A stretch of 64,000 bases of DNA from an uncultured Bacteroidia bacterium (GCA_938006875.1 CALLMJ010000091.1:13177-77176); one strand, 5' to 3'. Shown: positions 3,995 to 61,508, counted from the first letter of the stretch. Notes: generated from the letters alone by a model not told the origin. Translations and numbers: made by a program.

Positions 3995-4750
3995 TTAGGA
4001 ATGCTCATTCATTAGAATTTTTAGTGCTAATTCAGAAGCCTTTTGCTCAGCACTTTTCTTTTTTACATCAGTAGCTTGAGCAATTAATTTATCACCAATT
4101 TTAACACCAATCGTATATATACGGTGATTCCCTCTATTTTCTTCGTTGATAACTTCATAAGATAAGGAAGAAATTTTCTTTTTTTGGACAAACTCTAACA
4201 GTCTACTTTTATAATTATGGTCAGTTTTTTCTAATTCGGAAACATCTACATGACCTTGAATAATCGTTTTATAAATAAAATTTTTTGCATAAAAAAAGCC
4301 TTTATCTAAAAAAATTGCACCAATAAAAGCTTCTAGTGCATTACCATAAATGGAAGGATTAGGATTGGAATTGACTTTATAATCAAAAAAAATAATGCTA
4401 TCAAAACCTAATTTTAGAGCAATTTCATTTAAACATGCTCTATTAACTATTTTAGAACGCATTTCCGTAAGAAAACCTTCATCTTTATTAGGATATTTTT
4501 TAAAAAGATACTCAGCAATTACCATTCCCAAAACGGAATCCCCTAAGTATTCAAGACGTTCATTACACTCTATAGCATTATTTTTAGAATTTTTCACGAT
4601 TGAACTATGGCTAAAAGCTTGCTTATAAAGCCTATAATCAAAAGGCAATATACCCGTAAGAAGTTTGACTTTTTTTATAAATTCCTTTTCTTTATGAAAA
4701 AAAAGATTATAATTAGCCAACAAATAACTTACTGGATATAGAATTCTCAA
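3995..4750 (-). CDS. rnc: Ribonuclease III
   Basis: RNase III signature ERLEYLGDSVLG and a C-terminal dsRBD-like region (KKKSAEQKASELALKIL). Confidence 0.9.
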   Translation of the reverse strand: MRILYPVSYLLANYNLFFHKEKEFIKKVKLLTGILPFDYRLYKQAFSHSSIVKNSKNNAIECNERLEYLGDSVLGMVIAEYLFKKYPNKDEGFLTEMRSKIVNRACLNEIALKLGFDSIIFFDYKVNSNPNPSIYGNALEAFIGAIFLDKGFFYAKNFIYKTIIQGHVDVSELEKTDHNYKSRLLEFVQKKKISSLSYEVINEENRGNHRIYTIGVKIGDKLIAQATDVKKKSAEQKASELALKILMNEHS

Positions 4751-4753
4751 AAT

Positions 4754-6016
4754 TTAAGAAGAAAATTTTTTAAATAATAAAGAAGAATTATGCCCTCCAA
4801 AGCCAAAAGTGTTAGAAATAGCAAAATTTACAACTCTATTTTTAGGTTGATGAAAGGTATAATCCAAATCACAATCAGGATCGTCTGTAAAATGATTAAT
4901 TGTGGGTGGAATTAAATCATTTTTAACAGCTAAAATAGTTGCAATAGCTTCAATAACACCCGCAGCACCTAATAAATGACCTGTCATTGATTTTGTGGAA
5001 CAAATAGAAATATTTTTAGCATGTTCACCAAAAACATTCTTAATTGCATTAGTTTCTGCAATATCACCCTTGGGAGTTGATGTACCATGTACATTAATAT
5101 GGTCAATATCAGATAAATTGCAGCCCGAGGAAATTAAAGCGTTTTTCATAACAGCAATAACGCCCTTACCCTCCGGATCAGGTTCTGTGAGATGATGAGC
5201 ATCAGCTGTTAAACCAATACCTATTAATTCAGCATAAATTTTTGCACCTCTTGCCATTGCAGATTCGTAGGTTTCAAGAACAATACAACCAGAGCCTTCG
5301 CCTAAAACGAAACCATCTCTATCTTTATCAAAAGGACGGCTAGCTGTTTTAGGATCATCATTTCTTTCAGATAAAGCATGCATAGAATTAAAACCACCTA
5401 CACCAGCTTCATTAATCGCTGCTTCTGCACCTCCTGTAACAACTATATCCGCTAAACCACTCTGAATTAACATAAATCCATCAGCAATACAATTAGAAGA
5501 AGTTGCACAAGCTGAAACACAAGAGTAATTAGGTCCTCTAAAACCATATCTCATGGACACATGGCCTGGAAGAATATCAATGATCATTTTGGGGATAAAA
5601 AATGGATTAAATCTTGGAGTACCATCACCCTTAGCAAAATCACTTACCTCCTTAATAAAAGTTTCAAGCCCTCCGATTCCAGAACCCATAACTACTCCCA
5701 CACGAAAAGGGTCAATGGAGGAAATATCATTAATATTATGAAGACCAGCATCCTGAACCGCTTCAGTTGCAGCAGCAATACCAAAATGGCAAAATAAATC
5801 CATCCTTCTCGCTTCTTTTTTATCTAAATAATTTTGTACATCAAAATTTTTTACTTCACATGCAAAATGCGTTCTAAACTTTGATGCATCAAAACGAGTT
5901 ATTTTATCAGCACCACTCGTACCAGAAATTAAACCTTTCCAGTACGAGTCAATACCAATACCCACTGGAGTTACTGCACCTATTCCGGTAACAACTACTC
6001 TTCTGTGAAATTTCAT
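4754..6016 (-). CDS. fabF: Beta-ketoacyl-ACP synthase II
   Basis: 420 aa, full-length KAS II pattern: RRVVVTGIG, active-site ACATS, HGTSTP, GHLLGAAG. Lies directly downstream of acpP. Confidence 0.95.
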   Translation of the reverse strand: MKFHRRVVVTGIGAVTPVGIGIDSYWKGLISGTSGADKITRFDASKFRTHFACEVKNFDVQNYLDKKEARRMDLFCHFGIAAATEAVQDAGLHNINDISSIDPFRVGVVMGSGIGGLETFIKEVSDFAKGDGTPRFNPFFIPKMIIDILPGHVSMRYGFRGPNYSCVSACATSSNCIADGFMLIQSGLADIVVTGGAEAAINEAGVGGFNSMHALSERNDDPKTASRPFDKDRDGFVLGEGSGCIVLETYESAMARGAKIYAELIGIGLTADAHHLTEPDPEGKGVIAVMKNALISSGCNLSDIDHINVHGTSTPKGDIAETNAIKNVFGEHAKNISICSTKSMTGHLLGAAGVIEAIATILAVKNDLIPPTINHFTDDPDCDLDYTFHQPKNRVVNFAISNTFGFGGHNSSLLFKKFSS

Positions 6017-7877: not shown

Positions 7878-8063
7878 TTATTTAGTTTCTCTATGAATCG
7901 TCATTTTTTTCAAAATGGGATTATATTTTTTTAATTCTAGCCTTCCTGTTGTATTTTTTTTATTTTTTTGGGTATGATACCTTGAAGTACCAGGTAGACC
8001 ACTTGCCTTATGTTCTGTGCACTCTAAAATCACTTGAATACGATTTCCTTTACTCTTAGCCAT
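7878..8063 (-). CDS. rpmG: 50S ribosomal protein L33
   Basis: 61 aa: [19 protein letters not shown]...[22 protein letters not shown], the typical L33 sequence. Confidence 0.95.
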
Positions 8064-8109
8064 TGTTTAAAAATATTTAGACCGCAAAATTAATAATAAA
8101 AATTTTAAA

Positions 8110-8502
8110 TTACAACTTTTCTCTAATTTTTTGTGCAATTAAATCTAATTGTTCGGAAGAAAGTTGAACACGAGGTTTCGTAAAATTCAAATCATCAACA
8201 GAATCCAAAGGAATTAAATGAACATGAGCGTGTGGAACTTCCAAGCCAACAACTGCAACACCAATTTTTTTGCATGGAATAGCCTTTTTTATTGCCTCAG
8301 AAACAATTTTAGAAAATAAATTTAAACCTATAAATAACTCATCATCTAAATCAAAATAATAATCAATTTCACGTTTAGGGATCACTAAAACATGCCCTTC
8401 TTTCACGGGATTAACATCTAAAAAAGCTAAAAAATCATTTGTTTCTGCAATTTTATAACAAGGTATTTCACCAGAAACAATTTTAGAAAAAATAGTAGCC
8501 AT
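8110..8502 (-). CDS. HIT (histidine triad) family nucleotide hydrolase
   Basis: 130 aa with the histidine triad HAHVHLIP. Confidence 0.85.
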   Translation of the reverse strand: MATIFSKIVSGEIPCYKIAETNDFLAFLDVNPVKEGHVLVIPKREIDYYFDLDDELFIGLNLFSKIVSEAIKKAIPCKKIGVAVVGLEVPHAHVHLIPLDSVDDLNFTKPRVQLSSEQLDLIAQKIREKL

Positions 8503-8975
8503 TATCTTGTAATTTCTAATATTTCAAATTTTAATGTACCTGCAGGAACTTTAATTTCTACAACATCACCAACAACTTTACCTAATAAACCATTACCAAT
8601 TGGTGATTCTACGGATATTTTGCCTTCTTTTAAATTAGCTTCTTTCTGAGATACCAAAGTATAAGTAACCGTATCACCTTTAATAAGATTTTTTAACTTT
8701 ACAGTAGAAAGAATATAAACTTTAGAAGTATCAATTTCTTCATCGGAAAGAATTCTAGAATTGATAAGCATCTCTTCCAACTTAGAAATTTTAAGCTCAA
8801 GGAGACCTTGAGCTTCTTTTGCTGCATCATATTCAGCATTCTCACTTAGGTCTCCTTTTTCTCGTGCCTCTGCAATTGCGGCAGCAATTTTGGCTCTTTC
8901 TTTGGTTTTTAAATCGTGAAGTTCTTGAACAAGCTTATCGTAGCCTTCTTTTGTAAGATAATATATTTCCGCCAT
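8502..8975 (-). CDS. greA: Transcription elongation factor GreA
   Basis: 157 aa. N-terminal coiled coil with GDLSENAEYDAAKE, and a C-terminal FKBP-like domain. Confidence 0.95.
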   Translation of the reverse strand: MAEIYYLTKEGYDKLVQELHDLKTKERAKIAAAIAEAREKGDLSENAEYDAAKEAQGLLELKISKLEEMLINSRILSDEEIDTSKVYILSTVKLKNLIKGDTVTYTLVSQKEANLKEGKISVESPIGNGLLGKVVGDVVEIKVPAGTLKFEILEITR

Positions 8976-8980
8976 AATAA

Positions 8981-10048
8981 TTATAAATTTACTCTACAAC
9001 CAAGTGAATGAGTACCTTGAAATGGATTAGTAGTTCTATAACTATAATCAAGACCAAAAGAAGAATATCTTCCATCACCAGATTTAAAAGGTATTTCAAC
9101 GGTAGCACCAAATGCTAACCCTGTATAAACATTCATTCTTTCTTCAGGATTAGTTATACCCTTTTCCCAAACATAAGCAGCTCTAAACATAAAATACTTT
9201 TTAAAACGATATTCAGCACCAGCTCCAATTTGATCCCTAGCAAAAGCATTTGCAGTAAAATTTACCATAGGTAAAATGGTATGAATAGTAGCAACAGAAT
9301 CACCACCAAAATTTAATTCATAAGATGCACCAATATTTAGCTGAGTAGGTAATTCAAATTTAGAAGCAACAGTAGCTACATTACTAGTAAATCTACTGTT
9401 AGAGCCCCCCAAATTAGCTCTTTGGGTTAATCCATCACCAGTGTATCTCATTTCAGGACCCACATTTTTTAATGCAACACCAATACGAAACTTACCATCT
9501 TTGTCAGTATATTGAACACCCGCATCAAAAGCAACTCCATTAGCAGCAACATCAGTAATAGATTCATGAATTAAACGTGTTGTAAAACCAACAAATATTC
9601 TATCTTCTACGAAAGTTTTTGCATAAGAAACTCCAATATTTAAAAAAGTTGGACTAAAAGTGCCTAAAGTACCATCTGGTTGATCGATGGTAGTTCTTTG
9701 AAAATCACCTAAATCAAAAGATACAACAGATAATCCAAGTACTCCTCCCTTTTTTAAACTTTGTGAAAATCCAAATGTATTCAAGTTAATATCCGTCCCA
9801 ACTAAATATCTCGTATGAGAAAATATTAATTCTGTTCTTTTGGTTCTTGCTAAACCTGCTGGGTTATTAATAACAGACTCAATTCCATAGCCATTGGAAG
9901 TATTTATACCATGAACTCCAGAATTTCTTGCCCATGGATTAATTAATAATTGAGTTGCTCCAGCTTGACCAGCCCTTTCGGGGTTCCCAGCTAATAAAAA
10001 CTGGGAACTTAAATAGGTTAAAACTATTATTATTGCTATACTTTTCAT
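8981..10048 (-). CDS. Outer-membrane beta-barrel protein, PorV/PorQ-like (FadL-like) family, putative
   Basis: Signal peptide, then AGQAGATQLLINPWARNSGVHG. This resembles the G-x-aG-x(3)-L-x-I-x(3)-AR-x(3)-G N-terminal motif of the PorV/PorQ family. The remainder has alternating beta-strand character. It starts 17 nt downstream of a CTD-bearing giant protein. Confidence 0.5.
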   Translation of the reverse strand: MKSIAIIIVLTYLSSQFLLAGNPERAGQAGATQLLINPWARNSGVHGINTSNGYGIESVINNPAGLARTKRTELIFSHTRYLVGTDINLNTFGFSQSLKKGGVLGLSVVSFDLGDFQRTTIDQPDGTLGTFSPTFLNIGVSYAKTFVEDRIFVGFTTRLIHESITDVAANGVAFDAGVQYTDKDGKFRIGVALKNVGPEMRYTGDGLTQRANLGGSNSRFTSNVATVASKFELPTQLNIGASYELNFGGDSVATIHTILPMVNFTANAFARDQIGAGAEYRFKKYFMFRAAYVWEKGITNPEERMNVYTGLAFGATVEIPFKSGDGRYSSFGLDYSYRTTNPFQGTHSLGCRVNL

Positions 10049-27068: not shown

Positions 27069-27087
27069 CTTCAAAATTTTTTGTCAT

Positions 27088-27125
27088 AGACCTGAGTTTC
27101 ATAAAACTCAGGTCTATTATTTTGT
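27088..27125 (+). terminator. Rho-independent terminator after trxA
   Basis: Perfect 11-bp stem AGACCTGAGTT (27088-27098) / AACTCAGGTCT (27105-27115), followed by ATTATTTTG. Confidence 0.8.
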
Positions 27126-29083: not shown

Positions 29084-30670
29084 TTAATTTTCTTCGTGCA
29101 TCATTTGAGTTAATTTTTTTGATAATGCAAACATAATCAAAGCAGCTAATCCAGAAAATATTACAAATACCATAAAGAAATCATATAAATCCTTAATTTG
29201 GAAACCTAAAAGTACGGGTTTTTTGGGATTAGAAGGATCAGGATAGAATTGAGAAAATACGCCTGCTAATTTATTGGCAGTAGAAGTGGATAAAAACCAA
29301 ACTCCCATTAGTAATGATGCAAACCTTGCAGGTGCTAATTTATTTACCATAGAAAGCCCAATGGGAGATAAACAAAGTTCACCGATAGTATGAAGCAAAT
29401 ACAATGTAGTTAACCATAACATACTCACTTTAACGTTAGGGTTTAGGTTTTTAACACCAAAAGTAATAATAAAATAACCGATTGCTAAAAATAATAAACC
29501 GAAAGCTTGTTTTAAAGGAGAAGAAGGTTCTAAGCCTTTTTTATTAAGAGCCTGCCAAATCAAAGAAAATACAGGTGCTAAAGCCACAATAAAAATGGCA
29601 TTAAAACTTTGAAAGTAACTAGCTGGCATTTCCCACCCAAAAAGCTTACGGTTGGTTTGTTCAGCAGCAAAAACTGTTAATGAGGCTCCTGCTTGTTCAA
29701 ATGCAATCCAAAAAGCAATCACAAAGAATGCCGAAATGAAAATAACCCAAATACGTTCTTTTTCAATAGTAGTTAAAGTAGGGTCTGTAATAATAGAAGC
29801 AGGTGCCGCTAAAGTCAAAGAATAAATAAAAATACCAATCCAATCCAATTTTGCAAATTCTTCCCCTTGAACTAACGATATTCCCACAAAAAGAACTAAT
29901 GAACCTATAATCCAACCTATAAGCCTTCCAATGCTATTATCTTTTTTATCTTCGGAATTTCCTTTTATGAATTTAGAGGAATCTGGTTTTCCACCAATAG
30001 CTTCACCAGTGGGAGTAACTAAATATTTATTCTTTAATAGTTCAAAGGAAACAATACTTATAATCATACCTATACAAGCAGCCAAAAAACCCCATTTAAA
30101 GTATTCAGGAAGAGCTTTTCCACTGGAATCATAGTGTTCACCTAATGCACCGCAAACTAATGGAGCAAAAAATGCACCCAGATTAATCCCCATATAAAAA
30201 ATAGTAAATGCAGCATCTTTTCTTGTATCTGTTTGAGAATATAAACTCCCTACCATAGTAGAAATATTAGGTTTAAAAAAACCATTACCCATAATTAAAC
30301 ATCCTAAACCACATAACATTAAAATATTAGCAAATTCAAAGTTTGAATAATTACTTGCACTTAAAAACATTAAAAATTGACCAAGAGCCATTAATAAACC
30401 TCCTACTAAGATAGATTTTCTATTGCCCCAATAACGGTCAGAAATATAACCACCAATAAGAGGAGTTAGATACACTAAACCTGTATAGCTACCATAGATT
30501 TGAGCAGCTTGGCTTTTATTCATCATAAGAGCATTCAAAAGGTAAAGCGTAAATATGGCACGCATACCGTAATAACTAAAACGTTCCCACATTTCTGTAA
30601 AAAACAATAAATAAAGACCTTCTGGATGACCTTTGGGCGTTTCTTTTTGTACTTCGTTTGATATTTCCAT
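29084..30670 (-). CDS. Proton-dependent oligopeptide transporter (POT/PTR2 family, DtpT-like); start taken at the ATG at 30670 (the ORF is open to 30775)
   Basis: PTR2 signature region FTEMWERFSYYGMRAIFTLYL. About 14 TM segments. Confidence 0.9.
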   Translation of the reverse strand: MEISNEVQKETPKGHPEGLYLLFFTEMWERFSYYGMRAIFTLYLLNALMMNKSQAAQIYGSYTGLVYLTPLIGGYISDRYWGNRKSILVGGLLMALGQFLMFLSASNYSNFEFANILMLCGLGCLIMGNGFFKPNISTMVGSLYSQTDTRKDAAFTIFYMGINLGAFFAPLVCGALGEHYDSSGKALPEYFKWGFLAACIGMIISIVSFELLKNKYLVTPTGEAIGGKPDSSKFIKGNSEDKKDNSIGRLIGWIIGSLVLFVGISLVQGEEFAKLDWIGIFIYSLTLAAPASIITDPTLTTIEKERIWVIFISAFFVIAFWIAFEQAGASLTVFAAEQTNRKLFGWEMPASYFQSFNAIFIVALAPVFSLIWQALNKKGLEPSSPLKQAFGLLFLAIGYFIITFGVKNLNPNVKVSMLWLTTLYLLHTIGELCLSPIGLSMVNKLAPARFASLLMGVWFLSTSTANKLAGVFSQFYPDPSNPKKPVLLGFQIKDLYDFFMVFVIFSGLAALIMFALSKKLTQMMHEEN

Positions 30671-30962
30671 TATTTCAAATAAATGAACCGTAAAATTATA
30701 AACTTTTTCAAAATACAAATAAACTTTGAAGAATTTGTGTTTTAAATCTATAAATTTTTTGCAAAGCTTTAACAATTTAAAATCTTTGGAATAACAAAAA
30801 ATTCATCTTTTTTTAAAATAGAGATTTTGAACGAAATTTTTGTTTTGATTACAACTAATTGTATTAAATTAAATTATGCATGGGATAGCGACATTTTGAA
30901 ACCTATCAACAAAAGTTTATAGTTTGATTTATCTAAATGTTGAAAATTAATTTTCTACCTGT

Positions 30963-31700
30963 GGTCATTGAGTAGGCACAGCCATACCGAAGGTCATTGA
31001 GTAGGCTTAGCCGTACCGAAATGACTTTGTTTCGGAGAAAAGCGGTCGTTTCGGTACGTTCGCTTCACTCACTACTCAACGAACGCATATATCTATGACC
31101 AGTCATTGAGTAGGCGTTGCCGTACCAAAGGTCATTGAGTAGGCGTTGCCGTACCGAAATGACCTTGTTTCGGAGAAAAGCGGTTGTTTCGGTACGTTCG
31201 ATACACTCACTACTCAACGACCGCATATATCTATGACCGGTCATTGAGTAGGCGTAGCCGTAACGAAGGTCATTGAGTAGGCGTTGCCATATCGAAGGTC
31301 ATTGAGTAGGCGTTGCCGTATCCAAATGACCTTGCTTCGGGGAAAAGCGGTCGTTTCGGTACGTTCGCTTCACTTTCTACTCAACGACCGCATATATCTA
31401 TGACCAATCATTGAGCAGGCGTAGCCGTACCGAAGGTCATTGAGTAGGCGTTGCCGTATCGAAATGACCTTGTTTCGGAGAAAAGCGGTTGTTTCGGTAC
31501 GTTCGCTTCACTCTCTACTCAACAACCGCATATATCTATGACCAGTCATTGATTAGGCGTAGCCGTACCGAAGGTCATTGAGTATGCGTTGCCGTATCGA
31601 AGGTCATTGAGTAGGCGTTGCCGTATCGAAATGACCTTGTTTCGGAGAAAAGCGGTCGTTTCGGTACGTTCGCTTCACTCTCTACTCAACAACCGCATGT
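30963..31700 (+). repeat. Higher-order tandem repeat array: 12 copies of a 29-nt direct repeat in five units (138, 138, 167, 138 and about 157 nt). Each unit is closed by an 80-nt tail carrying an inverted copy.
   Basis: Read directly from the sequence. Consensus sub-repeat: GGTCATTGAGTAGGCGTTGCCGTACCGAA. Sub-repeat starts: 30963, 30992, 31101, 31130, 31239, 31268, 31297, 31406, 31435, 31544, 31573, 31602. Tail: ATGACCTTGTTTCGGAGAAAAGCGGTCGTTTCGGTACGTTCGCTTCACTCACTACTCAACGACCGCATATATCTATGACC. No ORF of 60 aa or more in any frame. Confidence 0.95.
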
Positions 31701-31738
31701 ATTATTATAAAAAAAACCTATGAGAAGAATTTATTTTT

Positions 31739-31765
31739 TTGGGAAAAATTTTGGCTTTATTTTTG
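31739..31765 (+). promoter_or_regulatory. Candidate Bacteroidota-type promoter for the TlpA-like gene (TTG ... TATTTTTG)
   Basis: TATTTTTG at 31758-31765 matches the TAnnTTTG -7 consensus, 22 nt before the ATG. A TTG at 31739-31741 lies 16 nt upstream. Motif match only. Confidence 0.3.
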
Positions 31766-31787
31766 CTACTCAATCAAAAAAGTAAGA

Positions 31788-32300
31788 ATGAAAAAAAATA
31801 TTTTTATTGCAATCATTTTATTGGCATTTCAATGTGTTTTTGCTCAAAATAAAAGACCTCTACCTTCAGTTAATATTAAAACCCTTGATGGAAAGGCTTT
31901 TAATTCCAAAGAATTTGATAACAATGGAAAGCCTATAATTATTTCTTTTTGGGCTACTTGGTGTAAACCTTGTATTCAAGAACTCATTAATATTTCTGAA
32001 GTTTATGACGAGTGGCAAAAAGAAACTGGTGTAAAATTAATTGCTATTTGTATTGATGACGCCAGAAATATCGCAAAAGTTCCTAGTTTTGTTAAGGGAA
32101 AAGACTGGAAATATGAAGTCTATTTAGACGTAAATTCTGATTTTAAAAGGGAACTTGGAGTGAATAATGTTCCTCATACTTTTCTTTTAGATGGTAATAA
32201 AAACGTAGTCTGGGACCATAATTCTTACACCAACGGGGACGAAGAAAAATTATACGAATTAGTAAAAAAACTTTCTAACGGAGAAACCATTAAAGAATAA
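31788..32300 (+). CDS. TlpA/redoxin-family periplasmic thiol:disulfide oxidoreductase
   Basis: Signal peptide plus the thioredoxin-fold motif FWATWCKPC. Confidence 0.85.
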   Translation: MKKNIFIAIILLAFQCVFAQNKRPLPSVNIKTLDGKAFNSKEFDNNGKPIIISFWATWCKPCIQELINISEVYDEWQKETGVKLIAICIDDARNIAKVPSFVKGKDWKYEVYLDVNSDFKRELGVNNVPHTFLLDGNKNVVWDHNSYTNGDEEKLYELVKKLSNGETIKE

Positions 32301-33130: not shown

Positions 33131-33213
33131 GTTTTCCGAAGCTATAGATAAGCCCACTTCGGAAAACTCAGTGTAAAGGTAGCAACGCAAACCATAAGAA
33201 AGCAAGTCCATGC
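33131..33213. repeat. GC-rich intergenic hairpin element, copy A
   Basis: Perfect 10-bp hairpin TTTTCCGAAG (33132-33141) / CTTCGGAAAA (33157-33166). The 27-nt core AGCCCACTTCGGAAAACTCAGTGTAAA (33151-33177) recurs at 36184-36210 with one difference. Confidence 0.7.
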
Positions 33214-36001: not shown

Positions 36002-36040
36002 CTGTTGTGAAAAGTGAATTATGTAAAGTCAAACTAAACT

Positions 36041-36247
36041 TGTGGTGTGATTGAGGAATCCGAAGGGCACAATTCGATACTCATTGACTACGAATTGGCA
36101 CTGCCTTTTGATGCTGAGTTTACCGAAGCAGAAAAAGGATTGTGAAATTATTGAGTTTACCGAAATGCCGAAGAGAACTGCGAAGCCCACTTCGGTAAAC
36201 TCAGTGTAAACATCAGCCCGACCCGCAGCGTAGCAAGAGGAAAGCCC
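36041..36247. repeat. GC-rich intergenic hairpin element, copy B (long form)
   Basis: Perfect 15-bp stem CTGAGTTTACCGAAG (36114-36128) / CTTCGGTAAACTCAG (36190-36204). A second forward arm TGAGTTTACCGAAA sits at 36152-36165 inside the loop. The core AGCCCACTTCGGTAAACTCAGTGTAAA lies at 36184-36210. The 5' part TCATTGACTA...GGCACTGCC...TACCGAA resembles the 29-nt sub-repeat of the 31-kb array. Confidence 0.75.
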
Positions 36248-36356
36248 CAATCATCATCGTTTTTAATCCATAAAATTTTATCAAACTCTAAAAAATCAAC
36301 GAAAAATTTCTATTACTGATTAAAATTTTTCTATAAATTGCAAACGTTTTGGATAT

Positions 36357-39300
36357 ATGAAAAAAACATTATTCTGGTTATTGTACTTCATTCCATTTTT
36401 TAACTTTGCTCAAGTTACGGACGATTTTTCTGATGGGGATTTTACCAATAATCCTACATGGATAGGTGATGTTTCAGAATTTATTGTGAATGGTAATTTT
36501 CAATTACAATCCAATGGACCGGCTGCAAGTGCTACTCTATATTTATCCACTTCTTCTACTTATGCAAACAACTGTGAATGGCGTTTTTGGGTTCGTTGTG
36601 CTTTTAATCCTTCTACTACCAACCTTGCTCGTATTTATTTAATTTCTGACCAAGCTAATTTAGAAGGCTCTTTAAATGGTTATTATATCCAAATTGGTGG
36701 TATCACTGGCAATGCAGATGCTATAGATTTATTTAGACAAGATGGTAATACCCGAACTAAAATTATTAGTGGAATTCCAGGAAATGCAGGTGCAAATGAT
36801 AATATTTTGGGTATTCGCGTTATACGTGATGCTTCTGGTAATTGGTCAGTTTATTCGGATATTACAGGAGGCACCAATTACCAATTAGAAGGTAATGCTA
36901 CTGATAATACCTATTCTACCTCCGCTTTTATGGGAATTGTTTGTGTACATACCGCTACACGTAACACTTCGTTTTATTACGATGATTTTTATGCGGGTCC
37001 AATCATTGTGGATACAACTCCCCCTTCCGTAAATGCACTAAATGTAATAGACGCAAACACTTTAAGAGTAATTTTTTCGGAAGGTGTTACTCCTGTAACT
37101 GCTCAAAATGTTTCTAATTATTCAGCGAATAACGGTCTGGGAAATCCCGCTTCAGCAAATTTAATCAATGCAACTACCGTTGAATTAGTATTTTCTAATA
37201 GCTTTGTAGACGGTTTACAAAATACATTAACCGTTCAAAATATTTCAGATTATGCAAGTAATCTCATGCCAAGCCCTCAAAATATTGATTTTACTTACTT
37301 TGCACCAGCGGTAGCAGTAGAATATGATGTGGTTTTCAATGAACTAATGGCTGACCCTGACCCGCAAGTAGCTTTACCCAACCAAGAATTTATAGAAATT
37401 TATAATCGTTCTAACAAAAATTTGAATTTACAAAATTGGACTTTATCAGATTTAAGTTCTACGGTTACTTTGCCTAATTATATCCTTGCACCTAATTCAT
37501 ACTTGATTTTATGTGCTAATGCACATGTATCTTTGTTTTCAGGTTATGGACCCACTTTGGGTTTATCCTCATTACCTTCTTTGAATAATTCATCCGATGT
37601 TTTTACCTTAAAAAATCAAAATGGCGATGTGATTGATGTAGTAGCTTATTTTGATTCTTGGTATAAAGACCCTATCAAGAAAAATGGTGGTTGGACATTA
37701 GAAAGAATAAGTTACGATAATTTTTGTAGAGATTCTGCGAATTGGGCAGCTTCTGTCAATCTCAATGGAGGTACTCCTGGAGTCCAAAATTCTATTTTCA
37801 ATCAATTTACTGATATTTTACCACCACAACTGGTTTCCGTTTCCCTTCAAGACCCTCAAACTATCGTATTAAATCTGAATGAATCCATTGACAGTGTAGA
37901 TGCTCTCAACTTCAATAAATATCTGGTAAATAATGGTATAGGTAACCCTCAATCTGTTCAAATTACCAATAAACTTAAAACCCTTATTTTAACTTTTGCG
38001 AATGCTTTACAACCCTCTGTTATTTATGAACTTACTGTTACGAATTTAAAAGACTGTATCGGAAATGTAAATAACAGTTTAACAGTAAATTTAGGTATTC
38101 CAGAACCAGCAAATCCCAATGATGTTGTAATCAATGAATTCATGGCTGACCCTGACCCCGTCATTGGTTTACCCAACCAAGAATTCGTAGAATTATTTAA
38201 TGCTTCTAATAAAATAATTGATTTAGGTGGGTGGAAATTTGCAGATGCTTCTACGCAAGTAACTCTAAATTCTTTTCTGCTTTTGCCTAATTCATACGTA
38301 ATTTTAACTTCCACAGCAAATGCAAATTTATTTATTTCTTATGGAAATGTTTTAGGTGTAGGCAGCTTACCTTCCTTAAATAACACGTCAGATGATTTGT
38401 ATTTGTATGACAATAATGATGTTCTCATTTCTACTGTCAGTTATAAAGATAGTTGGTACAGAGATCCTTTGAAAAAAAATGGAGGTTGGACTTTAGAAAG
38501 AGTTAGCCCTTTTATTACTTGTAATGACTCTGCAAATTGGAGAGTTTCGGAAAATCCTCAAGGTGGTACTCCTGGTGCTCAAAATTCTATTTTTAATCAG
38601 TTTACTGATATATTACCTCCTCAACCTTTAGGAATTACTGTTATTAATCCTAACATTATCCAATTGAATCTTAATGAATCGGTAGATATTGCTGATGCTT
38701 CCAATCCTAATAAATATGTGATTAACAACGGTATAGGCATAGCTCAAAGTGTGAACATTTTAAATAATGGAACTACATTAGAATTAATTTTTTCGAATAC
38801 ATTACAGCCAAATGTGCTTTATGAGCTTGTTGTCAATAATTTACGTGATTGTATTGGGAATATCAATAATTACTTTACGATGATTTTAGGTATTCCAGAA
38901 CCTGCAAATCCCAATGATGTTGTAATCAATGAATTCATGGCTGACCCTGACCCCGTCATTGGTTTACCTAACCAAGAATTCGTAGAATTATTTAATGCTT
39001 CTAATAAAATAATTGATTTAGGAGGGTGGCGTTTCACTGATGGTTCTTCAAACGTGAATTTACCTTCTTATTTGCTTATGCCCAATACTTATGTACTCTT
39101 GACTTCAACGTCTAACGTAAATTTATTTACTCCTTATGGAAATGTTCTTGGTGTGGGCAGTTTGCCTTCATTAAATAACTCAGGTGATGATTTAGCTTTG
39201 TATGATGCGAATGACAACTTAATCTCACAAGTAAAATATCGTGATTCTTGGTATCAAGATAACATAAAAAAAGCCGGTGGTTGGACGTTAGAACGTGTAA

Positions 39301-41339
39301 ATCCTTATATAACTTGCAATGATTCTGCGAACTGGCGAGCTTCTGTGGACACACGAGGTGGTACGCCTAATGAACAAAATTCTATCTTTGGACAAATTCA
39401 AGATGTGCTTCCTCCCAATATTTTTAACGCTTTTGTAGAGTTACCCAGCACTATTTATGTTATTTTTAACGAAACATTTGACCCTTCCTTGTGGGATATT
39501 TCAGATTTTGATTTACAAGGATTTGGAAATCCCATTTCTTATTCAACTGCGGATAATCCCACGTTAAAACTTACTTTTTCTAATACTTTTGTACAAGGGA
39601 CTATTTATACGTTGAATATTCAAAAAGTAAAAGATTGTGTGGGAAATCAAGCCAATAATTTAAGTATTCAAGTTGGAATACCCATACCAGCAGATTTTAA
39701 CGATGTAATTATCAATGAAATTATGGCAGACCCTGACCCCATTGTGGGTTTACCAGAAGTGGAGTACGTAGAAATTTATAACCGTTCAAACAAAATTTTA
39801 GATGTCTCCGAATGGACTTTATCCGATAACCTTTCAAATGGTAAATTTCCCCAAAATAGCATTATTATGCCTAATTCTTATTGGTTATTATGTTCTAACA
39901 GTGCAAGTAATGAATTAAAAAACTTAGGTAATACATTTGCTTTAAGCAGTTTTCCAGGGCTAAATAATAGTGGCGAATTAATTACATTACGTGATAGAGA
40001 TGGAAATCTCATTGATTTTGTGTTTTATAAGGATAGTTGGTATCGTGATGAAATAAAGAAAAACGGTGGTTGGTCATTAGAAAGAATAGACCCTAACTCA
40101 TGCGTCGTAGAAGAAAATTGGAGAGCCTCTATGGACATTACCGGTGGAACCCCTGGACGTATCAATTCTATTTTTGGTCAAATTTTAGATACCATTCCCC
40201 CAAAAATTCAGGAAATCAAACTTATTAATAAAACTACTATCCTAGTGGTTTTTAATGAAAAAATGAATGAAACCGATTTAGAAAATCTACAACTTTATGA
40301 TTTACAACCCAGTATAGGACAACCAGCTCATGTTATTTCCAATTTTGAAAAAAATCAAATAGAGCTTATTTTTCCTTTTGAATTGGATAGCAACCGTGTT
40401 TATACCTTGAATATCAATAATATAAAAGATTGTTCTGGTAACCTTTCAGCTCTTTTAAGTGGAGAAGTTGCTGTACCCATTTCTGCTCAAAAAGGGGATA
40501 TTATTCTCAATGAAATTTTATATGAGCCACGCACAGGCGGAAAAAGATATATAGAAATTTATAACAAAACCAACCAATGGTTAGATATAAGCAATTGGAA
40601 AATTGGACGTGCTAATGATGCTGATGAAGTGTATCAATCCGTAAAAATTCCTGATTATTTGGTCATTAGACCTTATGGACATATGGCTTTCACTCAAGAT
40701 ACTTTTAACATTAAACAAGAATATAACCCTCCTGTTCACGCTGTTTTGGTGCAATTAAGTAAAAGTATTCCAGCATATGACAGTAAATCAGATAAAGTGG
40801 TTTTAATGAATTCCCAAGATGTAAGAATAGATGAAGTTCGTTACAGCCGTGATTGGCATTATAACGACTTAGTAACTCGTAGAGGTGTTGCCTTAGAGCG
40901 TTTAAGTCCAGACCAACCTTCCCAAAGTGAATCCAATTGGTTTTCAGCAAGTTCTATTGTTCGTTATGGTACACCTGGCTATAAAAATTCTCAATCTTAT
41001 AGACCAGAAAATCAAGATAAAACCTTTTACATAAACCCTAAAATATTTTCACCAGACTTTGATGGTTTTGATGATGTTTTGGCATTACATTATGAATTCC
41101 CCCAAAATGATAACAACATTCGTATTACCATTTTTGATAGTGAAGGAAGAATTATCAAAATATTGAAAAACAATTTATTAGTAGGTAACGAACCCGGTTA
41201 CTTTTTATGGGACGGAACTGATGATTCAGGAAGAGTGGTTCAAATTGGTACTTACATTGCAGTTTTGGAAGTAGTGAATATTGGAACAGGCGAAAAGAAA
41301 TCATATAAAGCGGCTTTTGTGGTAGCAAAAAAGAAATGA
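36357..41339 (+). CDS. Giant (1660 aa) secreted protein with five lamin-tail-domain (LTD) modules alternating with Ig-like modules and a C-terminal FlgD-Ig/T9SS-like domain
   Basis: Signal peptide MKKTLFWLLYFIPFFNFAQ. The LTD core motif (V/I)INE(F/L/I)MADPDP..GLP..E(F/Y)(V/I)E(L/I)(F/Y)N occurs four times, plus a diverged fifth copy (ILNEILYEP...YIEIYNKT). The C-terminus is FSPDFDGFDDVLALHY...ITIFDSEGRIIKIL...WDGTDDSGRVVQIGTYIAVLEV. Confidence 0.85.
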   Translation: MKKTLFWLLYFIPFFNFAQVTDDFSDGDFTNNPTWIGDVSEFIVNGNFQLQSNGPAASATLYLSTSSTYANNCEWRFWVRCAFNPSTTNLARIYLISDQANLEGSLNGYYIQIGGITGNADAIDLFRQDGNTRTKIISGIPGNAGANDNILGIRVIRDASGNWSVYSDITGGTNYQLEGNATDNTYSTSAFMGIVCVHTATRNTSFYYDDFYAGPIIVDTTPPSVNALNVIDANTLRVIFSEGVTPVTAQNVSNYSANNGLGNPASANLINATTVELVFSNSFVDGLQNTLTVQNISDYASNLMPSPQNIDFTYFAPAVAVEYDVVFNELMADPDPQVALPNQEFIEIYNRSNKNLNLQNWTLSDLSSTVTLPNYILAPNSYLILCANAHVSLFSGYGPTLGLSSLPSLNNSSDVFTLKNQNGDVIDVVAYFDSWYKDPIKKNGGWTLERISYDNFCRDSANWAASVNLNGGTPGVQNSIFNQFTDILPPQLVSVSLQDPQTIVLNLNESIDSVDALNFNKYLVNNGIGNPQSVQITNKLKTLILTFANALQPSVIYELTVTNLKDCIGNVNNSLTVNLGIPEPANPNDVVINEFMADPDPVIGLPNQEFVELFNASNKIIDLGGWKFADASTQVTLNSFLLLPNSYVILTSTANANLFISYGNVLGVGSLPSLNNTSDDLYLYDNNDVLISTVSYKDSWYRDPLKKNGGWTLERVSPFITCNDSANWRVSENPQGGTPGAQNSIFNQFTDILPPQPLGITVINPNIIQLNLNESVDIADASNPNKYVINNGIGIAQSVNILNNGTTLELIFSNTLQPNVLYELVVNNLRDCIGNINNYFTMILGIPEPANPNDVVINEFMADPDPVIGLPNQEFVELFNASNKIIDLGGWRFTDGSSNVNLPSYLLMPNTYVLLTSTSNVNLFTPYGNVLGVGSLPSLNNSGDDLALYDANDNLISQVKYRDSWYQDNIKKAGGWTLERVNPYITCNDSANWRASVDTRGGTPNEQNSIFGQIQDVLPPNIFNAFVELPSTIYVIFNETFDPSLWDISDFDLQGFGNPISYSTADNPTLKLTFSNTFVQGTIYTLNIQKVKDCVGNQANNLSIQVGIPIPADFNDVIINEIMADPDPIVGLPEVEYVEIYNRSNKILDVSEWTLSDNLSNGKFPQNSIIMPNSYWLLCSNSASNELKNLGNTFALSSFPGLNNSGELITLRDRDGNLIDFVFYKDSWYRDEIKKNGGWSLERIDPNSCVVEENWRASMDITGGTPGRINSIFGQILDTIPPKIQEIKLINKTTILVVFNEKMNETDLENLQLYDLQPSIGQPAHVISNFEKNQIELIFPFELDSNRVYTLNINNIKDCSGNLSALLSGEVAVPISAQKGDIILNEILYEPRTGGKRYIEIYNKTNQWLDISNWKIGRANDADEVYQSVKIPDYLVIRPYGHMAFTQDTFNIKQEYNPPVHAVLVQLSKSIPAYDSKSDKVVLMNSQDVRIDEVRYSRDWHYNDLVTRRGVALERLSPDQPSQSESNWFSASSIVRYGTPGYKNSQSYRPENQDKTFYINPKIFSPDFDGFDDVLALHYEFPQNDNNIRITIFDSEGRIIKILKNNLLVGNEPGYFLWDGTDDSGRVVQIGTYIAVLEVVNIGTGEKKSYKAAFVVAKKK
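38094..39027 (+). repeat. Intragenic 795-nt-period duplication inside the LTD gene, with an almost identical tract of about 140 nt
   Basis: 38094-38232 and 38889-39027 differ at only about 3 positions by eye (GGTATTCCAGAACC[A/T]GCAAATCCCAATGATGTTGTAATCAATGAATTCATGGCTGACCCTGACCCC...). The flanking module sequence is clearly more diverged. Confidence 0.9.
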
Positions 41340-53464: not shown

Positions 53465-55480
53465 TTATTTTTTTTGAAACGCTGGATGTTTTATTTCTTT
53501 ATAACCACCATATTTTGCATAAAGTTCAGGTAAATTTTGTTCTTCTTCAGGATACATTCTTATTAACCAAATAAAATTTCTTTTTTCTACCAAATGTTTC
53601 ATCATGATGTCCTTAGTTTCTTTTTGGCTAAGCTTTACTTTTTTTAGGTTAGGTTCACCATTGCGTTTTCTTAAATTCTTTTCATCTTTGGGTACTAAAA
53701 CTACTAAATGTTTAATGCTTGGTGATTTACGATATTTTACTTTGATTTTTGTAGAGTCTCCATCAACATATCTTACGTATTGAATTAAACGATTTTTAAT
53801 GATATAATCCGTAACAACACTTTTCCCAAATTTTTGAGTCTCTATGATTTGACCCGCTGAAACTCCAGAATAAATAGAATTAAGTTTACAAAAACGTCTT
53901 TTGTTTGTGAAAAAATATTTTAAATCGTCACCCACTCTCTCTAAATTGGATTTGGGTTGAACAATATTCGGATCACAAGGTACTTTGTATTTGTCTAAAG
54001 GTCTATGGCAAATTTTTAAACTTTTATAACAAACATTATCCAATTGTTTATGTTTTACACGGAAAGGTTTTTCACCGCAAGCCAAATCTAATTGCTTATG
54101 TTTCACGCGAAAAGGTTTTTCACCGCAAGCCAAATCTAATTGCTTATGTTTCACGCGGAAAGGTTTTTCACCGCAAGCCAAATCTAATTGCTTATGTTTT
54201 ACGCGGAAAGGTTTTTCACCGCAAGCCAAATCTAATTGCTTATGTGGTACTATTAGTTTTGGATAACAAACATTGTCTAATTGACGATGAGGAATTACTA
54301 ATTTCGGGTAACACATTCTGTCCAAACTTCTATGAGGTACCACAACTTTTGGGTAACAGAAATTTTGGGGATTACCTCTTTTCTGTTTGTATTTGGGCAT
54401 ATTAGCAAAATCTAAATTTTTATGCTTAATTCTTAAACTTTTAGGAGAAATTCCATCTAAACCTCTATGAGACATTCTGTACCTTGGCATGGTAACTCCA
54501 TCATACTGCTTATGTTTCATAGAAATAAAATTTTTAGGATTTCTTGATAACATTACATAACTTGCCGTGGGTATAACAATCAATCCTTTTTTTATTTTTT
54601 GAGCATATTGTTTGGCTACTCTGGTAGGTTTATCCACTTTAAATGCGGGCTCTCTATCTCTTTGTTTTTTAGAGTATATTCTTCTGTTGTCTAAATTCTT
54701 ATGTCTTACAGGGTAAGAAGCCATTCTACGTCTATCCAACTGTTTATGATGAACATGGTAAGAACGCATCGTTTTTAAATCCCTTTGATAATGCTTTTGT
54801 TGATAGTTCGCATATTTACGGCTATCTAAATTTCTATGTTTAACTTGATAGTTCGCATATTTACGGCTATCTAAATTTCTATGTTTAACTTTGTAATTTC
54901 CAGAGAACTTTTTGTTATCGAGTGAATTATGTCTTTTTTGATATTGAGAATAACTTTTGTTATCTAAGCGATTATGTTTTTGTTTGTAATTACCCGCAAA
55001 TCTTTTGTTGTCTAAGGAATTATGTTTTACTCGGTATTGAGGGATATTGACGTTATCAAGCCCTTTTCTACGAATTTTATTTTTATTACCATAAGTTACA
55101 TAATCTAAACTTTTAGGTTTATATCGTTTAATACGGTAAGGGTTTTGGGCTTTATCTAAAGTTTTATGGTATTTTTTAGGATTTTTTTCTCTAAAAGCCT
55201 GAAGTTTTTGTTGAAATTTTTGACGTTTTTTTTGTTGAGCTTGGAACTGCTTAGCTTTTGCAATTTGTTGTTTTCTTAAATGTTTTATATTTACTTGTTT
55301 CTTTTTATGAGGCGTAAACTTGGCTTCTTTTCTGTGATTTCTATGACTTGGATTACAAGTTGGACCTGTACAAGGTTTAAACTCTTGTTCATCTTGTGCA
55401 TTGACAATCAACGGATTAGCCAACAACAAGAAGCCCCAAATCAATAAAATTATTTTATATGGACTCAAAAAGTTTCGCAA
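53465..55480 (-). CDS. Exported, extremely basic repeat protein of unknown function (671 aa, about 20 degenerate H-[KRN]-x-L-D repeats)
   Basis: TTG start as listed. Signal-peptide-like MRNFLSPYKIILLIWGFLLLANPLIVNAQ. Lys/Arg/His/Gln-rich body with recurring (V/I/Q)(K/R/P)H(K/R/N)xLD every 14-16 residues. A non-repetitive C-terminal region of about 170 aa. I recognise no family. Confidence 0.8.
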   Translation of the reverse strand: MRNFLSPYKIILLIWGFLLLANPLIVNAQDEQEFKPCTGPTCNPSHRNHRKEAKFTPHKKKQVNIKHLRKQQIAKAKQFQAQQKKRQKFQQKLQAFREKNPKKYHKTLDKAQNPYRIKRYKPKSLDYVTYGNKNKIRRKGLDNVNIPQYRVKHNSLDNKRFAGNYKQKHNRLDNKSYSQYQKRHNSLDNKKFSGNYKVKHRNLDSRKYANYQVKHRNLDSRKYANYQQKHYQRDLKTMRSYHVHHKQLDRRRMASYPVRHKNLDNRRIYSKKQRDREPAFKVDKPTRVAKQYAQKIKKGLIVIPTASYVMLSRNPKNFISMKHKQYDGVTMPRYRMSHRGLDGISPKSLRIKHKNLDFANMPKYKQKRGNPQNFCYPKVVVPHRSLDRMCYPKLVIPHRQLDNVCYPKLIVPHKQLDLACGEKPFRVKHKQLDLACGEKPFRVKHKQLDLACGEKPFRVKHKQLDLACGEKPFRVKHKQLDNVCYKSLKICHRPLDKYKVPCDPNIVQPKSNLERVGDDLKYFFTNKRRFCKLNSIYSGVSAGQIIETQKFGKSVVTDYIIKNRLIQYVRYVDGDSTKIKVKYRKSPSIKHLVVLVPKDEKNLRKRNGEPNLKKVKLSQKETKDIMMKHLVEKRNFIWLIRMYPEEEQNLPELYAKYGGYKEIKHPAFQKK
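54041..54243 (-). repeat. Four near-perfect 48-nt tandem repeats inside the basic repeat-protein gene
   Basis: CACCGCAAGCC recurs at 54073, 54121, 54169 and 54217 (period 48 nt). The repeats encode 4 x HKQLDLACGEKPFRVK. Confidence 0.95.
54801..54890 (-). repeat. Perfect 45-nt tandem duplication inside the basic repeat-protein gene
   Basis: TGATAGTTCGCATATTTACGGCTATCTAAATTTCTATGTTTAACT occurs at 54801-54845 and again at 54846-54890. It encodes 2 x a 15-aa unit containing VKHRNLDSRKYANYQ. Confidence 0.95.
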
Positions 55481-60626: not shown

Positions 60627-61097
60627 CTAAAATTTACTTTTTACTGCAATAGCTGAAATCTCTACATTTACATTACGTGGTAAACTTTTCACAGCAACCG
60701 CTTCCCTAGCAGGAAGTATTTTTACCTCTTTAAAATATTCTGCATAAACACGATTGATAACTTCATAATGAGCTATATCCGTCATAAAAATGGTTATTTT
60801 TACCAAATCATTAGGCTCAAAACCTGCCTCTTTAACTATCTGAAATAAATTCTTTAAAACTTGGTGAGTTTCTTTTTCTATATCTTCTACTACCAAAGAT
60901 GAAGTATAAGGGTCAATAGCAATTTGTCCGCCAATAAACAACATATTATCTACAACTACGCCAGGACTGTAAGGAGCTATTGGATTTATTCCTTTTGGAA
61001 ATACTGCCTTAACAAAGTTCTCCTGTTGATGAAAACACTTGCATGACGTTAAATATAAGGAACTAAATAAAATGGTTATCCATAAGTTAATGCTCAT
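60627..61097 (-). CDS. RidA/YjgF-family protein with an N-terminal lipoprotein-type signal sequence
   Basis: The RidA core PIAPYSPGVVVDNMLFIGGQIAIDP...PAREAVAVKSLPRNVNVEISAIA is preceded by MSINLWITILFSSLYLTSC. Confidence 0.85.
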   Translation of the reverse strand: MSINLWITILFSSLYLTSCKCFHQQENFVKAVFPKGINPIAPYSPGVVVDNMLFIGGQIAIDPYTSSLVVEDIEKETHQVLKNLFQIVKEAGFEPNDLVKITIFMTDIAHYEVINRVYAEYFKEVKILPAREAVAVKSLPRNVNVEISAIAVKSKF

Positions 61098-61118
61098 TAA
61101 TAAAATCTATAAAAGCCA

Positions 61119-61508
61119 TTAATTTTTTACTGCAATACCTGAAATTTCTACATTTACATTTCTTGGTAAGGTTTTCACTGCAACTGCTTCTCTGGCTGGA
61201 TAAACCTCTATACCATCAAAATACTCACCGTAAATTTTATTGATAATCTCATAAAATGACATATCAGACATAAAAATAGTAATTTTTACTAAATCATTAG
61301 GAACAAATCCTGCTTCTTTCAAAACTTGAAACAAATTATTCATTACTTGATGCGTTTCATTTTCAATCGTATCAGTTACTAATTGACCGGTTTCGGGATT
61401 TATGGCTATTTGACCACTAATAAAAAGCATGTTGTTCAATAATACTCCGGGACTATAAGGAGCAATTGGTTTAATACCGTTCGGAAAAATTCCTTCTTTC
61501 ATATACAA
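61119..61508 (-). CDS. RidA/YjgF-family enamine/imine deaminase (cytoplasmic-type paralogue)
   Basis: 129 aa, collinear with the neighbouring paralogue: PIAPYSPGVLLNNMLFISGQIAINP...PAREAVAVKTLPRNVNVEISGIA. No signal peptide. Confidence 0.9.
   Translation of the reverse strand: MYMKEGIFPNGIKPIAPYSPGVLLNNMLFISGQIAINPETGQLVTDTIENETHQVMNNLFQVLKEAGFVPNDLVKITIFMSDMSFYEIINKIYGEYFDGIEVYPAREAVAVKTLPRNVNVEISGIAVKN

Follow-up and report, generated by a model that had tools for sequence, protein, structure and literature searches.

A five-unit hairpin repeat array in an uncultured Bacteroidia bacterium, a probable member of an undescribed family of small interspersed elements

The window (the whole 64-kb stretch of DNA analyzed here) contains a GC-rich array of hairpin-forming repeats between a peptide transporter gene and a TlpA-like redoxin gene. 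We consider the array to be an insertion, amplified in place, of a small interspersed repeat that is non-coding and forms hairpins, representing a new non-autonomous REPIN/MITE/BOX-like family, and we place the probability of this reading at about 0.6. We arrive at it because of the dispersal of the repeat, the shuffling of its modules, its solo, doubled, deleted and decayed forms, its presence or absence among close relatives, the breakage of a contig within it, and its lack of coding capacity and of covariation. As far as seen, and among the matches listed, the family is restricted to a few AT-rich uncultured Bacteroidia. The features of the locus and the copies found in other genomes are collected in Table 1.

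Table 1. Features of the array locus in the window and copies of the repeat on other contigs
Feature	Position	Strand	Description
POT/PTR2 peptide transporter gene	29084..30670	-	Pfam marks of the syntenic gene of the closest relative (L001)
Segment without counterpart in the closest relative	30745..31704	.	blastn of L001 against the window
AT-rich leader module	30818..30956	+	~80% identical to L008:5141-5282 and L090:4559-4701 (alignment, blastn, nhmmer)
Promoter-like TTGAAA-16-TATAGT (10/12)	30896..30923	+	faces the array; identical in all three leader copies
Unit 1	30963..31100	+	two 29-mers (centres ACA, TTA), 80-nt tail
Unit 2	31101..31238	+	two 29-mers (centres GTT, GTT), tail with GGTTG variant
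Unit 3	31239..31405	+	three 29-mers (centres GTA, GTT, GTT), tail
Unit 4	31406..31543	+	two 29-mers (centres GTA, GTT), tail with GGTTG variant
Unit 5	31544..31699	+	three 29-mers, shortened tail, end ...CAACAACCGCATG
TlpA/AhpC-TSA-like redoxin gene	31788..32300	+	Pfam marks of the syntenic L001 gene
L008 copy (MAG CALLNY01)	5310-5410		one unit
Decayed L008 copy (MAG CALLNY01)	5553-5655	-	diverged, inverted; found with the nhmmer unit profile
L020 copy (MAG CALLNY01)	1718-1815	-	one unit
L090 copy (MAG CALLNY01)	4729-4835		single-29-mer unit
L090 copy (MAG CALLNY01)	4841-4975		two-29-mer unit
L042 copy (MAG CALIZB01)	1315-1350	-	35-nt hairpin and remnant of the right terminus

The array consists of five head-to-tail units at 30963-31699, with sizes of 138, 138, 167, 138 and 156 nt (the count of units is as assembled). 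These hold 2, 2, 3, 2 and 3 abutting copies of a 29-mer with the consensus GGTCATTGAGTAGGCGTTGCCGTACCGAA, and each group is followed by a tail of approximately 80 nt that carries a diverged inverted copy. The original prediction had described five units of two or three forward 29-mers with one inverted arm, and TRF, the motif matches and the parsing of the units all agree with that description. The TRF periods were 29, 138, 167 and 305 nt across 30963-31702. The 29-mer consensus had 10 matches at up to three mismatches, compared to approximately none expected in the 64-kb window, all of them in the array and on the + strand. Its 14-nt core had 12 matches, compared to 0.2 expected, all on the + strand and all within 30963-31630; neither motif was found outside the array in the 64 kb. 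The GC content of the array is 0.48-0.49, against 0.20-0.33 in the flanks, and the block is thus as distinct from its surroundings as had been noted. Identity between units, taken over the terminal 29-mer copy and the tail, is 91-98%, and units 2+3 are 93% identical to units 4+5, which constitutes a 305-nt higher-order duplication. These identities indicate that the array grew in three steps, from the 29-mer to the 138/167-nt unit and then to the 305-nt unit pair.

The finer variants bear out the original prediction in part. The alternation of GGTCG with GGTTG in units 2 and 4 is present, as is the palindrome ATGACCGGTCAT at the unit junction at 31233-31244. The proposed rule that first copies carry GTA or ACA and later copies GTT is broken by unit 2, whose first centre is GTT, and by unit 1, whose second centre is TTA. 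The sequence CATATATCTATGACC, given as the end of every unit, closes the others but is missing from unit 5, whose end adjoins the sequence shared with the closest relative from 31705 onward. An assembly artefact, in the form of a mis-assembled or over-expanded repeat, would draw on the tendency of short-read assemblers to misjudge tandem copy number and on a related contig, L090, that breaks inside the element. However, the units differ at 2-9% of their positions, and do so in a nested and consistent way; an independent relative is collinear with both flanks; and the same unit occurs in independent assemblies. We find an artefact scarcely credible.

The basic unit measures approximately 95-100 nt and is bounded by 13-nt inverted termini, GGTCATTGAGTAG and CTACTCAACGACC, that match at 12 of 13 positions. 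A 35-nt hairpin comes first, followed by a short spacer and the diverged inverted copy. The 35-nt hairpin is composed of GGTCATT, a 21-nt loop with the motif GGC-N3-GCC, and AATGACC. Over the five units the forward and inverted arms alternate with the conserved linkers ATGACCTTGTTTCGGAGAAAAGC and GCATATATCTATGACC. The unit looks like an inverted doublet of a small palindrome. The block had been described as free of ORFs; mechanical ORFs of 59 and 44 amino acids do overlap it, but no such peptide is found in the protein database. Six-frame translation of two units gave no protein match at E<=10, no reading frame is conserved among the copies of the unit, and neither the 29-nt nor the 167-nt period is divisible by 3.

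Copies of the unit are present in other genomes. The genome collection was scanned with a pattern of 16 specified bases, which returned at least 87 rows, approximately 80 of them chance single matches. Every fetched locus was re-scored with the full 29-mer and tail, and at least four real loci were left, in at least two other uncultured Bacteroidia MAGs: at least three on contigs of CALLNY01 (L008, L020 and L090) and at least one in CALIZB01 (L042). The copies at these four loci are 84-100% identical to units of the window. The number of units at a given place is 1, 2 or 5, and each unit has 1-3 29-mers. The two units of L090 are a duplication with the same 7-nt upstream piece, AAGGATT, and the contig ends inside the element; assemblies break at repeats. 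The 35-nt hairpin of L042 (GGTCATT...AATGACC) is nested among other GC-rich repeats. The decayed copy at L008:5553-5655 has lost GGC-N3-GCC, and its fold is no better than that of shuffled sequences (z=0.06). The neighboring genes of the dispersed copies all differ, and include a HEAT-repeat/alkylation-repair-like gene, a gene for a secreted protein, a DinB-like gene with ferrochelatase, and a CHAT-domain gene. L008, L020, L090 and the window show no evident target-site duplication. A calibration of divergence through tblastn orthologues between the CALLNY01/CALIZB01 loci and the window yielded none that were usable. JGI metagenome scans with the 29-mer pattern and with the tail pattern gave no matches; of two viral scans, the first gave three chance matches and the second none; and blastn at a distant setting found no match in plasmids and phages.

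The repeated element extends upstream of the block that had been delimited at 30963-31700. Those limits hold for the array itself, but the AT-rich sequence at 30818-30956 is part of the same element. This leader, approximately 140 nt in length, recurs ahead of the units in L008 and L090, where the neighboring genes are unrelated to those of the window, and in all three copies the similarity begins abruptly at AATAGAGATTTTGAAC. The block 30886-30956 is approximately 93% identical across the window, L008 and L090. Among the matches listed for the nhmmer leader profile, these three places are the only ones. A type I toxin was considered for the leader, and no conserved small ORF was found in it. 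Downstream of the unit, a trailer of approximately 85 nt is common to L008 and L020. The leader with the unit is thus shared by the window, L008 and L090, and the unit with the trailer by L008 and L020; L020 is without the leader, and the window is without the trailer. Since leader and trailer are present or absent independently of each other, the element is modular, composed of a leader, units of 29-mers with a tail, and a trailer. The original prediction, which saw no adjacent partner, was correct for genes and missed both the conserved leader module and the dispersal of the family.

The promoter-like block TTGAAA-16-TATAGT sits in the best-conserved part of the leader and points into the array. 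This raises the alternative of a leader-driven tandem hairpin RNA, in which a + strand transcript would serve as a multi-copy sRNA, as a precursor processed by RNase III or as the 5' leader of the TlpA-like gene, with the repeat copies being gene copies. However, the Bacteroidota promoter form TTTG-N17-23-TAnnTTTG has no exact match in the leader (the nearest sequence is TTTG-N21-TAGTTTG), a search for terminator-like sites found none, the L020 unit is without a leader, and the L008 element lies between convergent genes. The conservation of the leader block at approximately 93%, together with its invariant hexamers, is more than a decaying selfish element predicts, unless transfer was recent.

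Folding bears on the same alternative. On both strands, a single unit folds into a bipartite hairpin; the z values are -4 to -5.3 for RNA and -3.5 to -4.7 for DNA. The 15-bp inner stem with one T-G pair is present as originally described. The 13-bp outer stem has the described A-C mismatch, but a second mismatch appears in units with CAACAACC. In an alignment of nine copies from two genomes, the consensus fold of the + strand is the more favorable (-36.7 kcal/mol, vs -24.9 for the - strand), and the long hairpin of approximately 93-95 nt is paired in 93.4% of cells. The inner stem is 99% paired and varies only between G-C and G-U, or C-G and U-G, at four pairs. Six positions (pairs 22-66, 25-63, 31-57, 32-56, 35-53 and 41-47) hold G-U on the + strand only, and are A-C on the - strand; these include the invariant U31-G57 and the apical U41-A47/U41-G47, which likewise pair on the + strand only. 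This pattern in the inner and apical parts hints at selection on the single-stranded form of the + strand, judging from the alignment. The outer stem has the opposite bias, with the invariant A5-C89 and frequent C4-A90 mismatches, both of which are G-U on the - strand, and thus favors the latter.

Compensatory changes in the long hairpin were not found among the nine copies. The local 7-bp hairpins GGTCATT/AATGACC and GGTYGTT/AACRACC are paired in 97.4% of cells, slightly better than the long hairpin. The competition of forward copies for one inverted arm, which had been put forward for the array, is a structural possibility only. The GGTYGTT/AACRACC hairpin contains one compensatory pair, T-A in four copies and C-G in three, which is non-significant (78 of 500 shuffles scored as high), and this hairpin is not stable alone. 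The 35-nt hairpin has a DNA fold of -6.4 kcal/mol (z=-3.1) and is paired in 98% of cells. As the stem variation is of the G-U type and no compensatory pair is significant, the alignment lends no statistical support to a maintained RNA structure and gives a weak hint as to strand only.

Rfam returned no match at the gathering thresholds for the whole window and the L008, L020, L090 and L042 loci. At E<=10, the array region and the L008 element gave sub-threshold matches only, all below half of the gathering score of the family. The conclusion that the array belongs to no described family thus holds for Rfam and for the blastn comparisons with plasmids and phages. Further points against an RNA are the existence of a decayed copy and the nature of the G-U bias, which amounts to at most six non-independent events (p of approximately 0.03, uncorrected). 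What keeps the RNA alternative alive is the conserved promoter-like block, together with the + strand bias of the G-U pairs, and we regard this alternative as possible but unlikely. A bolder form of it, in which the leader would be a genuine promoter and the element would be a gene, mobile or present in many copies, that encodes a tandem hairpin RNA, with the 29-mers and the inverted arm as alternative structures, strikes us as decidedly doubtful. If it were true, the RNA would belong to a new class of Bacteroidia ncRNA whose dose or processing is adjusted by the number of units, and it might act on the neighboring redoxin gene.

Comparison with relatives returns to the reading of the array as an amplified interspersed repeat. 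The closest relative (GCA_964493765.1, with a transporter 92% identical) is collinear with the window on both sides, and the Pfam marks of its syntenic genes support the divergent POT and TlpA-like flanks and the intergenic region of approximately 1.1 kb that had been called from the DNA. Homology to this relative ends at 30744 of the window and resumes at 31705. In between, the relative has 1.9 kb of other content, in which an MscS channel gene is accompanied by another GC-rich repeat; the array is therefore a lineage-specific replacement, and the difference is not a clean insertion into an empty site. The sequences upstream of the transporter (72 nt, to 30744) and of the redoxin gene (83 nt, 31705-31787) are both conserved with the relative, and hence the replacement lies between two promoter regions and touches neither. 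Upstream of the transporter, other relatives (at 78-90% identity) have tRNA genes, murD or DAP epimerase, and the element is present in none of them. Neither the TlpA-like protein nor the POT protein of the window had an exact match on record. A search for the unit in approximately 70 kb of DNA from relatives found no copy. The window has one unit locus in its 64 kb, and copy number per genome may accordingly be low.

The regular direct repeats combined with inverted motifs, and the ATGACCGGTCAT-type palindromes at unit junctions, could also suit an array of double-stranded protein-binding sites, be it iteron-like, centromere-like or a cluster of nucleoid, gyrase or IHF-type sites. There is a precedent in BIMEs, which are known to be bound by IHF, gyrase and Pol I (PMC2817692). 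However, the syntenic neighbors, assigned through the closest relative, are ordinary chromosomal genes (thioredoxin, DnaE, POT, redoxin, enoyl-CoA hydratase and OMP decarboxylase), and neither par nor rep genes are among them. The 29-bp spacing corresponds to 2.76 helical turns, other places carry single dispersed units, the closest relative has no such array, and the array matches no plasmid or phage. The comparison to plasmid centromeres such as sopC, which the original prediction had offered, does not survive these observations, and a protein-binding array is highly improbable. An oriC and a parS site were considered as well and rejected, boxes of either type being absent.

The REP/BIME-like option of the original prediction is the one that the evidence favors, given the dispersed solo, doubled, truncated and decayed copies and the absence from the closest relative, but strict membership among REPs is not borne out. 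In common with REPINs and BIMEs, the element has a GC-rich palindromic unit with an inverted copy across a short spacer, a hairpin of approximately 100 nt, extragenic dispersed copies, G-T pairs in the stems, and a GTAG motif. The forward and diverged inverted arms fold as a REPIN-like hairpin of approximately 93 nt (z of -3.5 to -5.3), and the alternating arms with conserved linkers are those of a BIME, for which the extra head-to-tail forward copies are atypical. REP clusters also reiterate dimers in tandem with bits of flanking DNA. In contrast, the forward arm here is repeated two to three times head-to-tail, which is rare in REPs, the inverted arm has a different and longer centre, no RAYT is seen in the 64-kb window, and copy number appears low. 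REP/REPIN copies are usually extragenic and dispersed, at tens to thousands per genome. REPs have been defined as stem-loops of 20-40 bp, the stem being 5-13 bp and the loop 2-20 nt (Di Nocera 2013); we counted the 35-nt hairpin as conforming, its stem being 7 bp and its loop, at 21 nt, one nucleotide over. The same survey describes an unpaired GTAG or CGTC tag at the end of the REP. Here GTAG occupies positions 10-13, and strict membership among GTAG-tagged REPs fails because the tag is inside the hairpin loop. Its distance from the 15-bp inner stem is 7 nt on the + strand and 13 nt on the - strand.

A strict REPIN-RAYT system would have these doublets moved by a single-copy RAYT (a Y1 HUH transposase, the gene of which REPs usually flank) encoded elsewhere in the genome, and would extend GTAG-type REPs to the Bacteroidota. 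The inverted doublet of small palindromes forming a long hairpin, the GTAG tetranucleotide in both arms and the tandem clustering typical of REPs all speak for it. The location of GTAG in the 21-nt loop of the 7-bp hairpin and the runs of forward arms speak against it, as does the survey of 2013, which did not find GTAG-type REPs in Bacteroidetes (Di Nocera 2013). No ORF of 80 amino acids or more in the window combines HUH-like and Y-x-x-x-N motifs. More broadly, the 64-kb window has no transposase, RAYT or IS with matching termini, a result that is uninformative for the whole genome. We hold such a strict system to be quite improbable.

Other families of small repeats offer further comparisons. 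In BOX elements, terminal modules surround a variable tandem module (PMC3049150). The BOX elements of Streptococcus pneumoniae and S. suis (boxA, tandem boxB, boxC; boxE/boxF) resemble the present element in being composite, modular, non-coding and interspersed, with terminal modules of approximately 50-130 nt, a variable tandem internal module, a length that grows with the number of modules, and a predicted fold if transcribed. The leader, the 1, 2 or 5 units and the trailer have this composite form, an analogy by description that implies no sequence homology. Unlike in BOX, what is amplified here is a hairpin doublet in its own right, and the reiteration extends to whole doublets; the terminal modules are rich in AT, and of these the window has the 5' one alone. 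MITEs such as the Correia elements of Neisseria, ERIC and RUP are likewise 100-350 nt long, non-coding and highly base-paired, with terminal inverted repeats, dispersed copies among unrelated flanks and possible promoter-like sequence. The 12/13 matching termini, the small size of the unit and its lack of a conserved frame agree with this description. However, MITEs are usually described as AT-rich, whereas the present element is GC-rich in an AT-rich host and amplified in tandem, and neither a target-site duplication nor a cognate IS was identified here.

A conserved AT-rich leader followed by direct repeats of approximately 29 nt is also reminiscent of CRISPR. The likeness ends there, as the 29-mers abut without spacers, the neighbors are not cas genes, and an inverted tail follows each repeat group; a CRISPR array was rejected. 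An integron attC site was rejected as well: ACTCAAC conforms to RYYYAAC and GTTGAGT to GTTRRRY, but their order is wrong and cassettes are lacking. A self-cleaving ribozyme multimer was dismissed on the lack of an Rfam ribozyme match.

For the preferred reading of an amplified interspersed repeat, we propose the following course. The unit is a REPIN-like doublet, able to fold as one long hairpin as well. Its copies would spread by transposition in trans, with the enzyme encoded elsewhere; candidates are a Y1/RAYT-type enzyme acting on single-stranded hairpins, or a transposase that recognizes the inverted termini, and both are possible. Tandem growth would result from unequal recombination or replication slippage between direct repeats, duplicating the 29-mer, then the unit, and then the unit pair. 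At this site the element may be neutral: situated between the two divergent promoters and leaving both intact, it would for that reason be tolerated. Effects on the neighbors, by read-through from the promoter-like block of the leader, by hairpins in a 5' UTR, or by cruciforms and supercoiling, would be by-products.

Most likely, then, the array represents an undescribed family of a familiar kind (REP/REPIN, MITE, BOX), and not a new type of system; by itself it opens no new mechanism. Much is known about small, interspersed palindromic repeats in Proteobacteria and streptococci. To our knowledge, few have been catalogued in Bacteroidota, and fewest in the uncultured lineages. A family that combines nested tandem amplification with separable AT-rich end modules matters for repeat annotation, as it breaks assemblies and can seed spurious ORFs, and it is useful for strain typing. 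It also raises the question of what enzyme mobilizes repeats of this type in Bacteroidia. The same genomes carry further intergenic hairpin repeats that are GC-rich, which suggests that repeats of this sort are a recurrent genomic habit.

The AT-rich non-coding block at window 30886-30956, which lies within the leader module upstream of the array, is approximately 93% identical to its counterparts on two contigs of the MAG CALLNY01 (L008:5212-5282 and L090:4630-4701), that is, across different genomes. The GC-rich units are less conserved (84-90%) than this block. Such a degree of identity is unexpected for an element that is selfish and decaying. The block could be a promoter, a binding site for a transposase or host factor, or the mark of a recent transfer. 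On L008, the intact unit is followed downstream, at a distance of about 150 nt, by a decayed copy in inverted orientation (5553-5655, minus strand), and the AAGGAT motif precedes both copies. The two therefore flank the trailer module as an inverted pair, in the intergenic space between two convergent genes.

A separate GC-rich intergenic repeat family, of the GGGCGTG...CTCACGC type and with arms rich in CTTCGG/CCGAAG, was also encountered (see the table). In the closest relative (GCA_964493765.1, locus L001) it occupies the exact site of the window's array, and on L042, a contig of the MAG CALIZB01, it adjoins the 35-nt hairpin. The window itself holds a 48-nt piece of this repeat (36095-36142), which is 92% identical to L001:4075-4122. 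Several GC-rich hairpin repeat families seem to share the same intergenic landing spots in these AT-rich Bacteroidia genomes. The region upstream of the POT/PTR2 transporter gene is a rearrangement hot spot among the relatives. Both window copies of a further, 28-nt repeat belong to hairpins of the form CCGAA...TTCGG. This repeat and the junction of the 29-mer with the tail in the array have the motif TACCGAAATG in common, which hints at a distant kinship between the two repeat families.

Repeats and palindromes in the window and in related loci
Feature	Position	Context	Remark
28-nt repeat AAGCCCACTTCGG(A/T)AAACTCAGTGTAAA	window 33150-33177 and 36183-36210	two intergenic regions	96% identical
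GGGCGTG...CTCACGC-type repeat	L001:4017-4150; L042:1370-1480 (- strand reading); window 36040-36250		
48-nt tandem repeat, ~4.3 copies	window 54038-54245	within 671-aa ORF 53465-55480 (-)	95% identity
Diverged ~795-nt tandem repeats	window 37324-39389, weaker to 40088	within 1660-aa ORF 36357-41339 (+)	71% identity
Two adjoining small paralogous genes	window 60627-61097 and 61119-61508 (-)	-	72% identical; repeat span 60632-61487
32-nt near-perfect palindrome	window 27086-27117	between convergent thioredoxin-like gene and 607-aa gene	

Two other relatives with a transporter homologue were of note. Directly downstream of the transporter gene (82% identical), L003 carries a gene for a 425-aa reverse transcriptase (RVT_1; 7915-9192), which could belong to a group II intron or to a retroelement of another kind; the window is devoid of this gene. 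Just upstream of the transporter, L096 has a tandem pair of ~75-nt sequences (4720-4900) that are near-identical and by eye look like tRNA genes.

Among the remaining repeats of the window, the 48-nt tandem repeat is an in-frame coding repeat of 16 amino acids. The ~795-nt repeats are suggestive of repeated protein domains, and the 32-nt palindrome is probably a bidirectional terminator.
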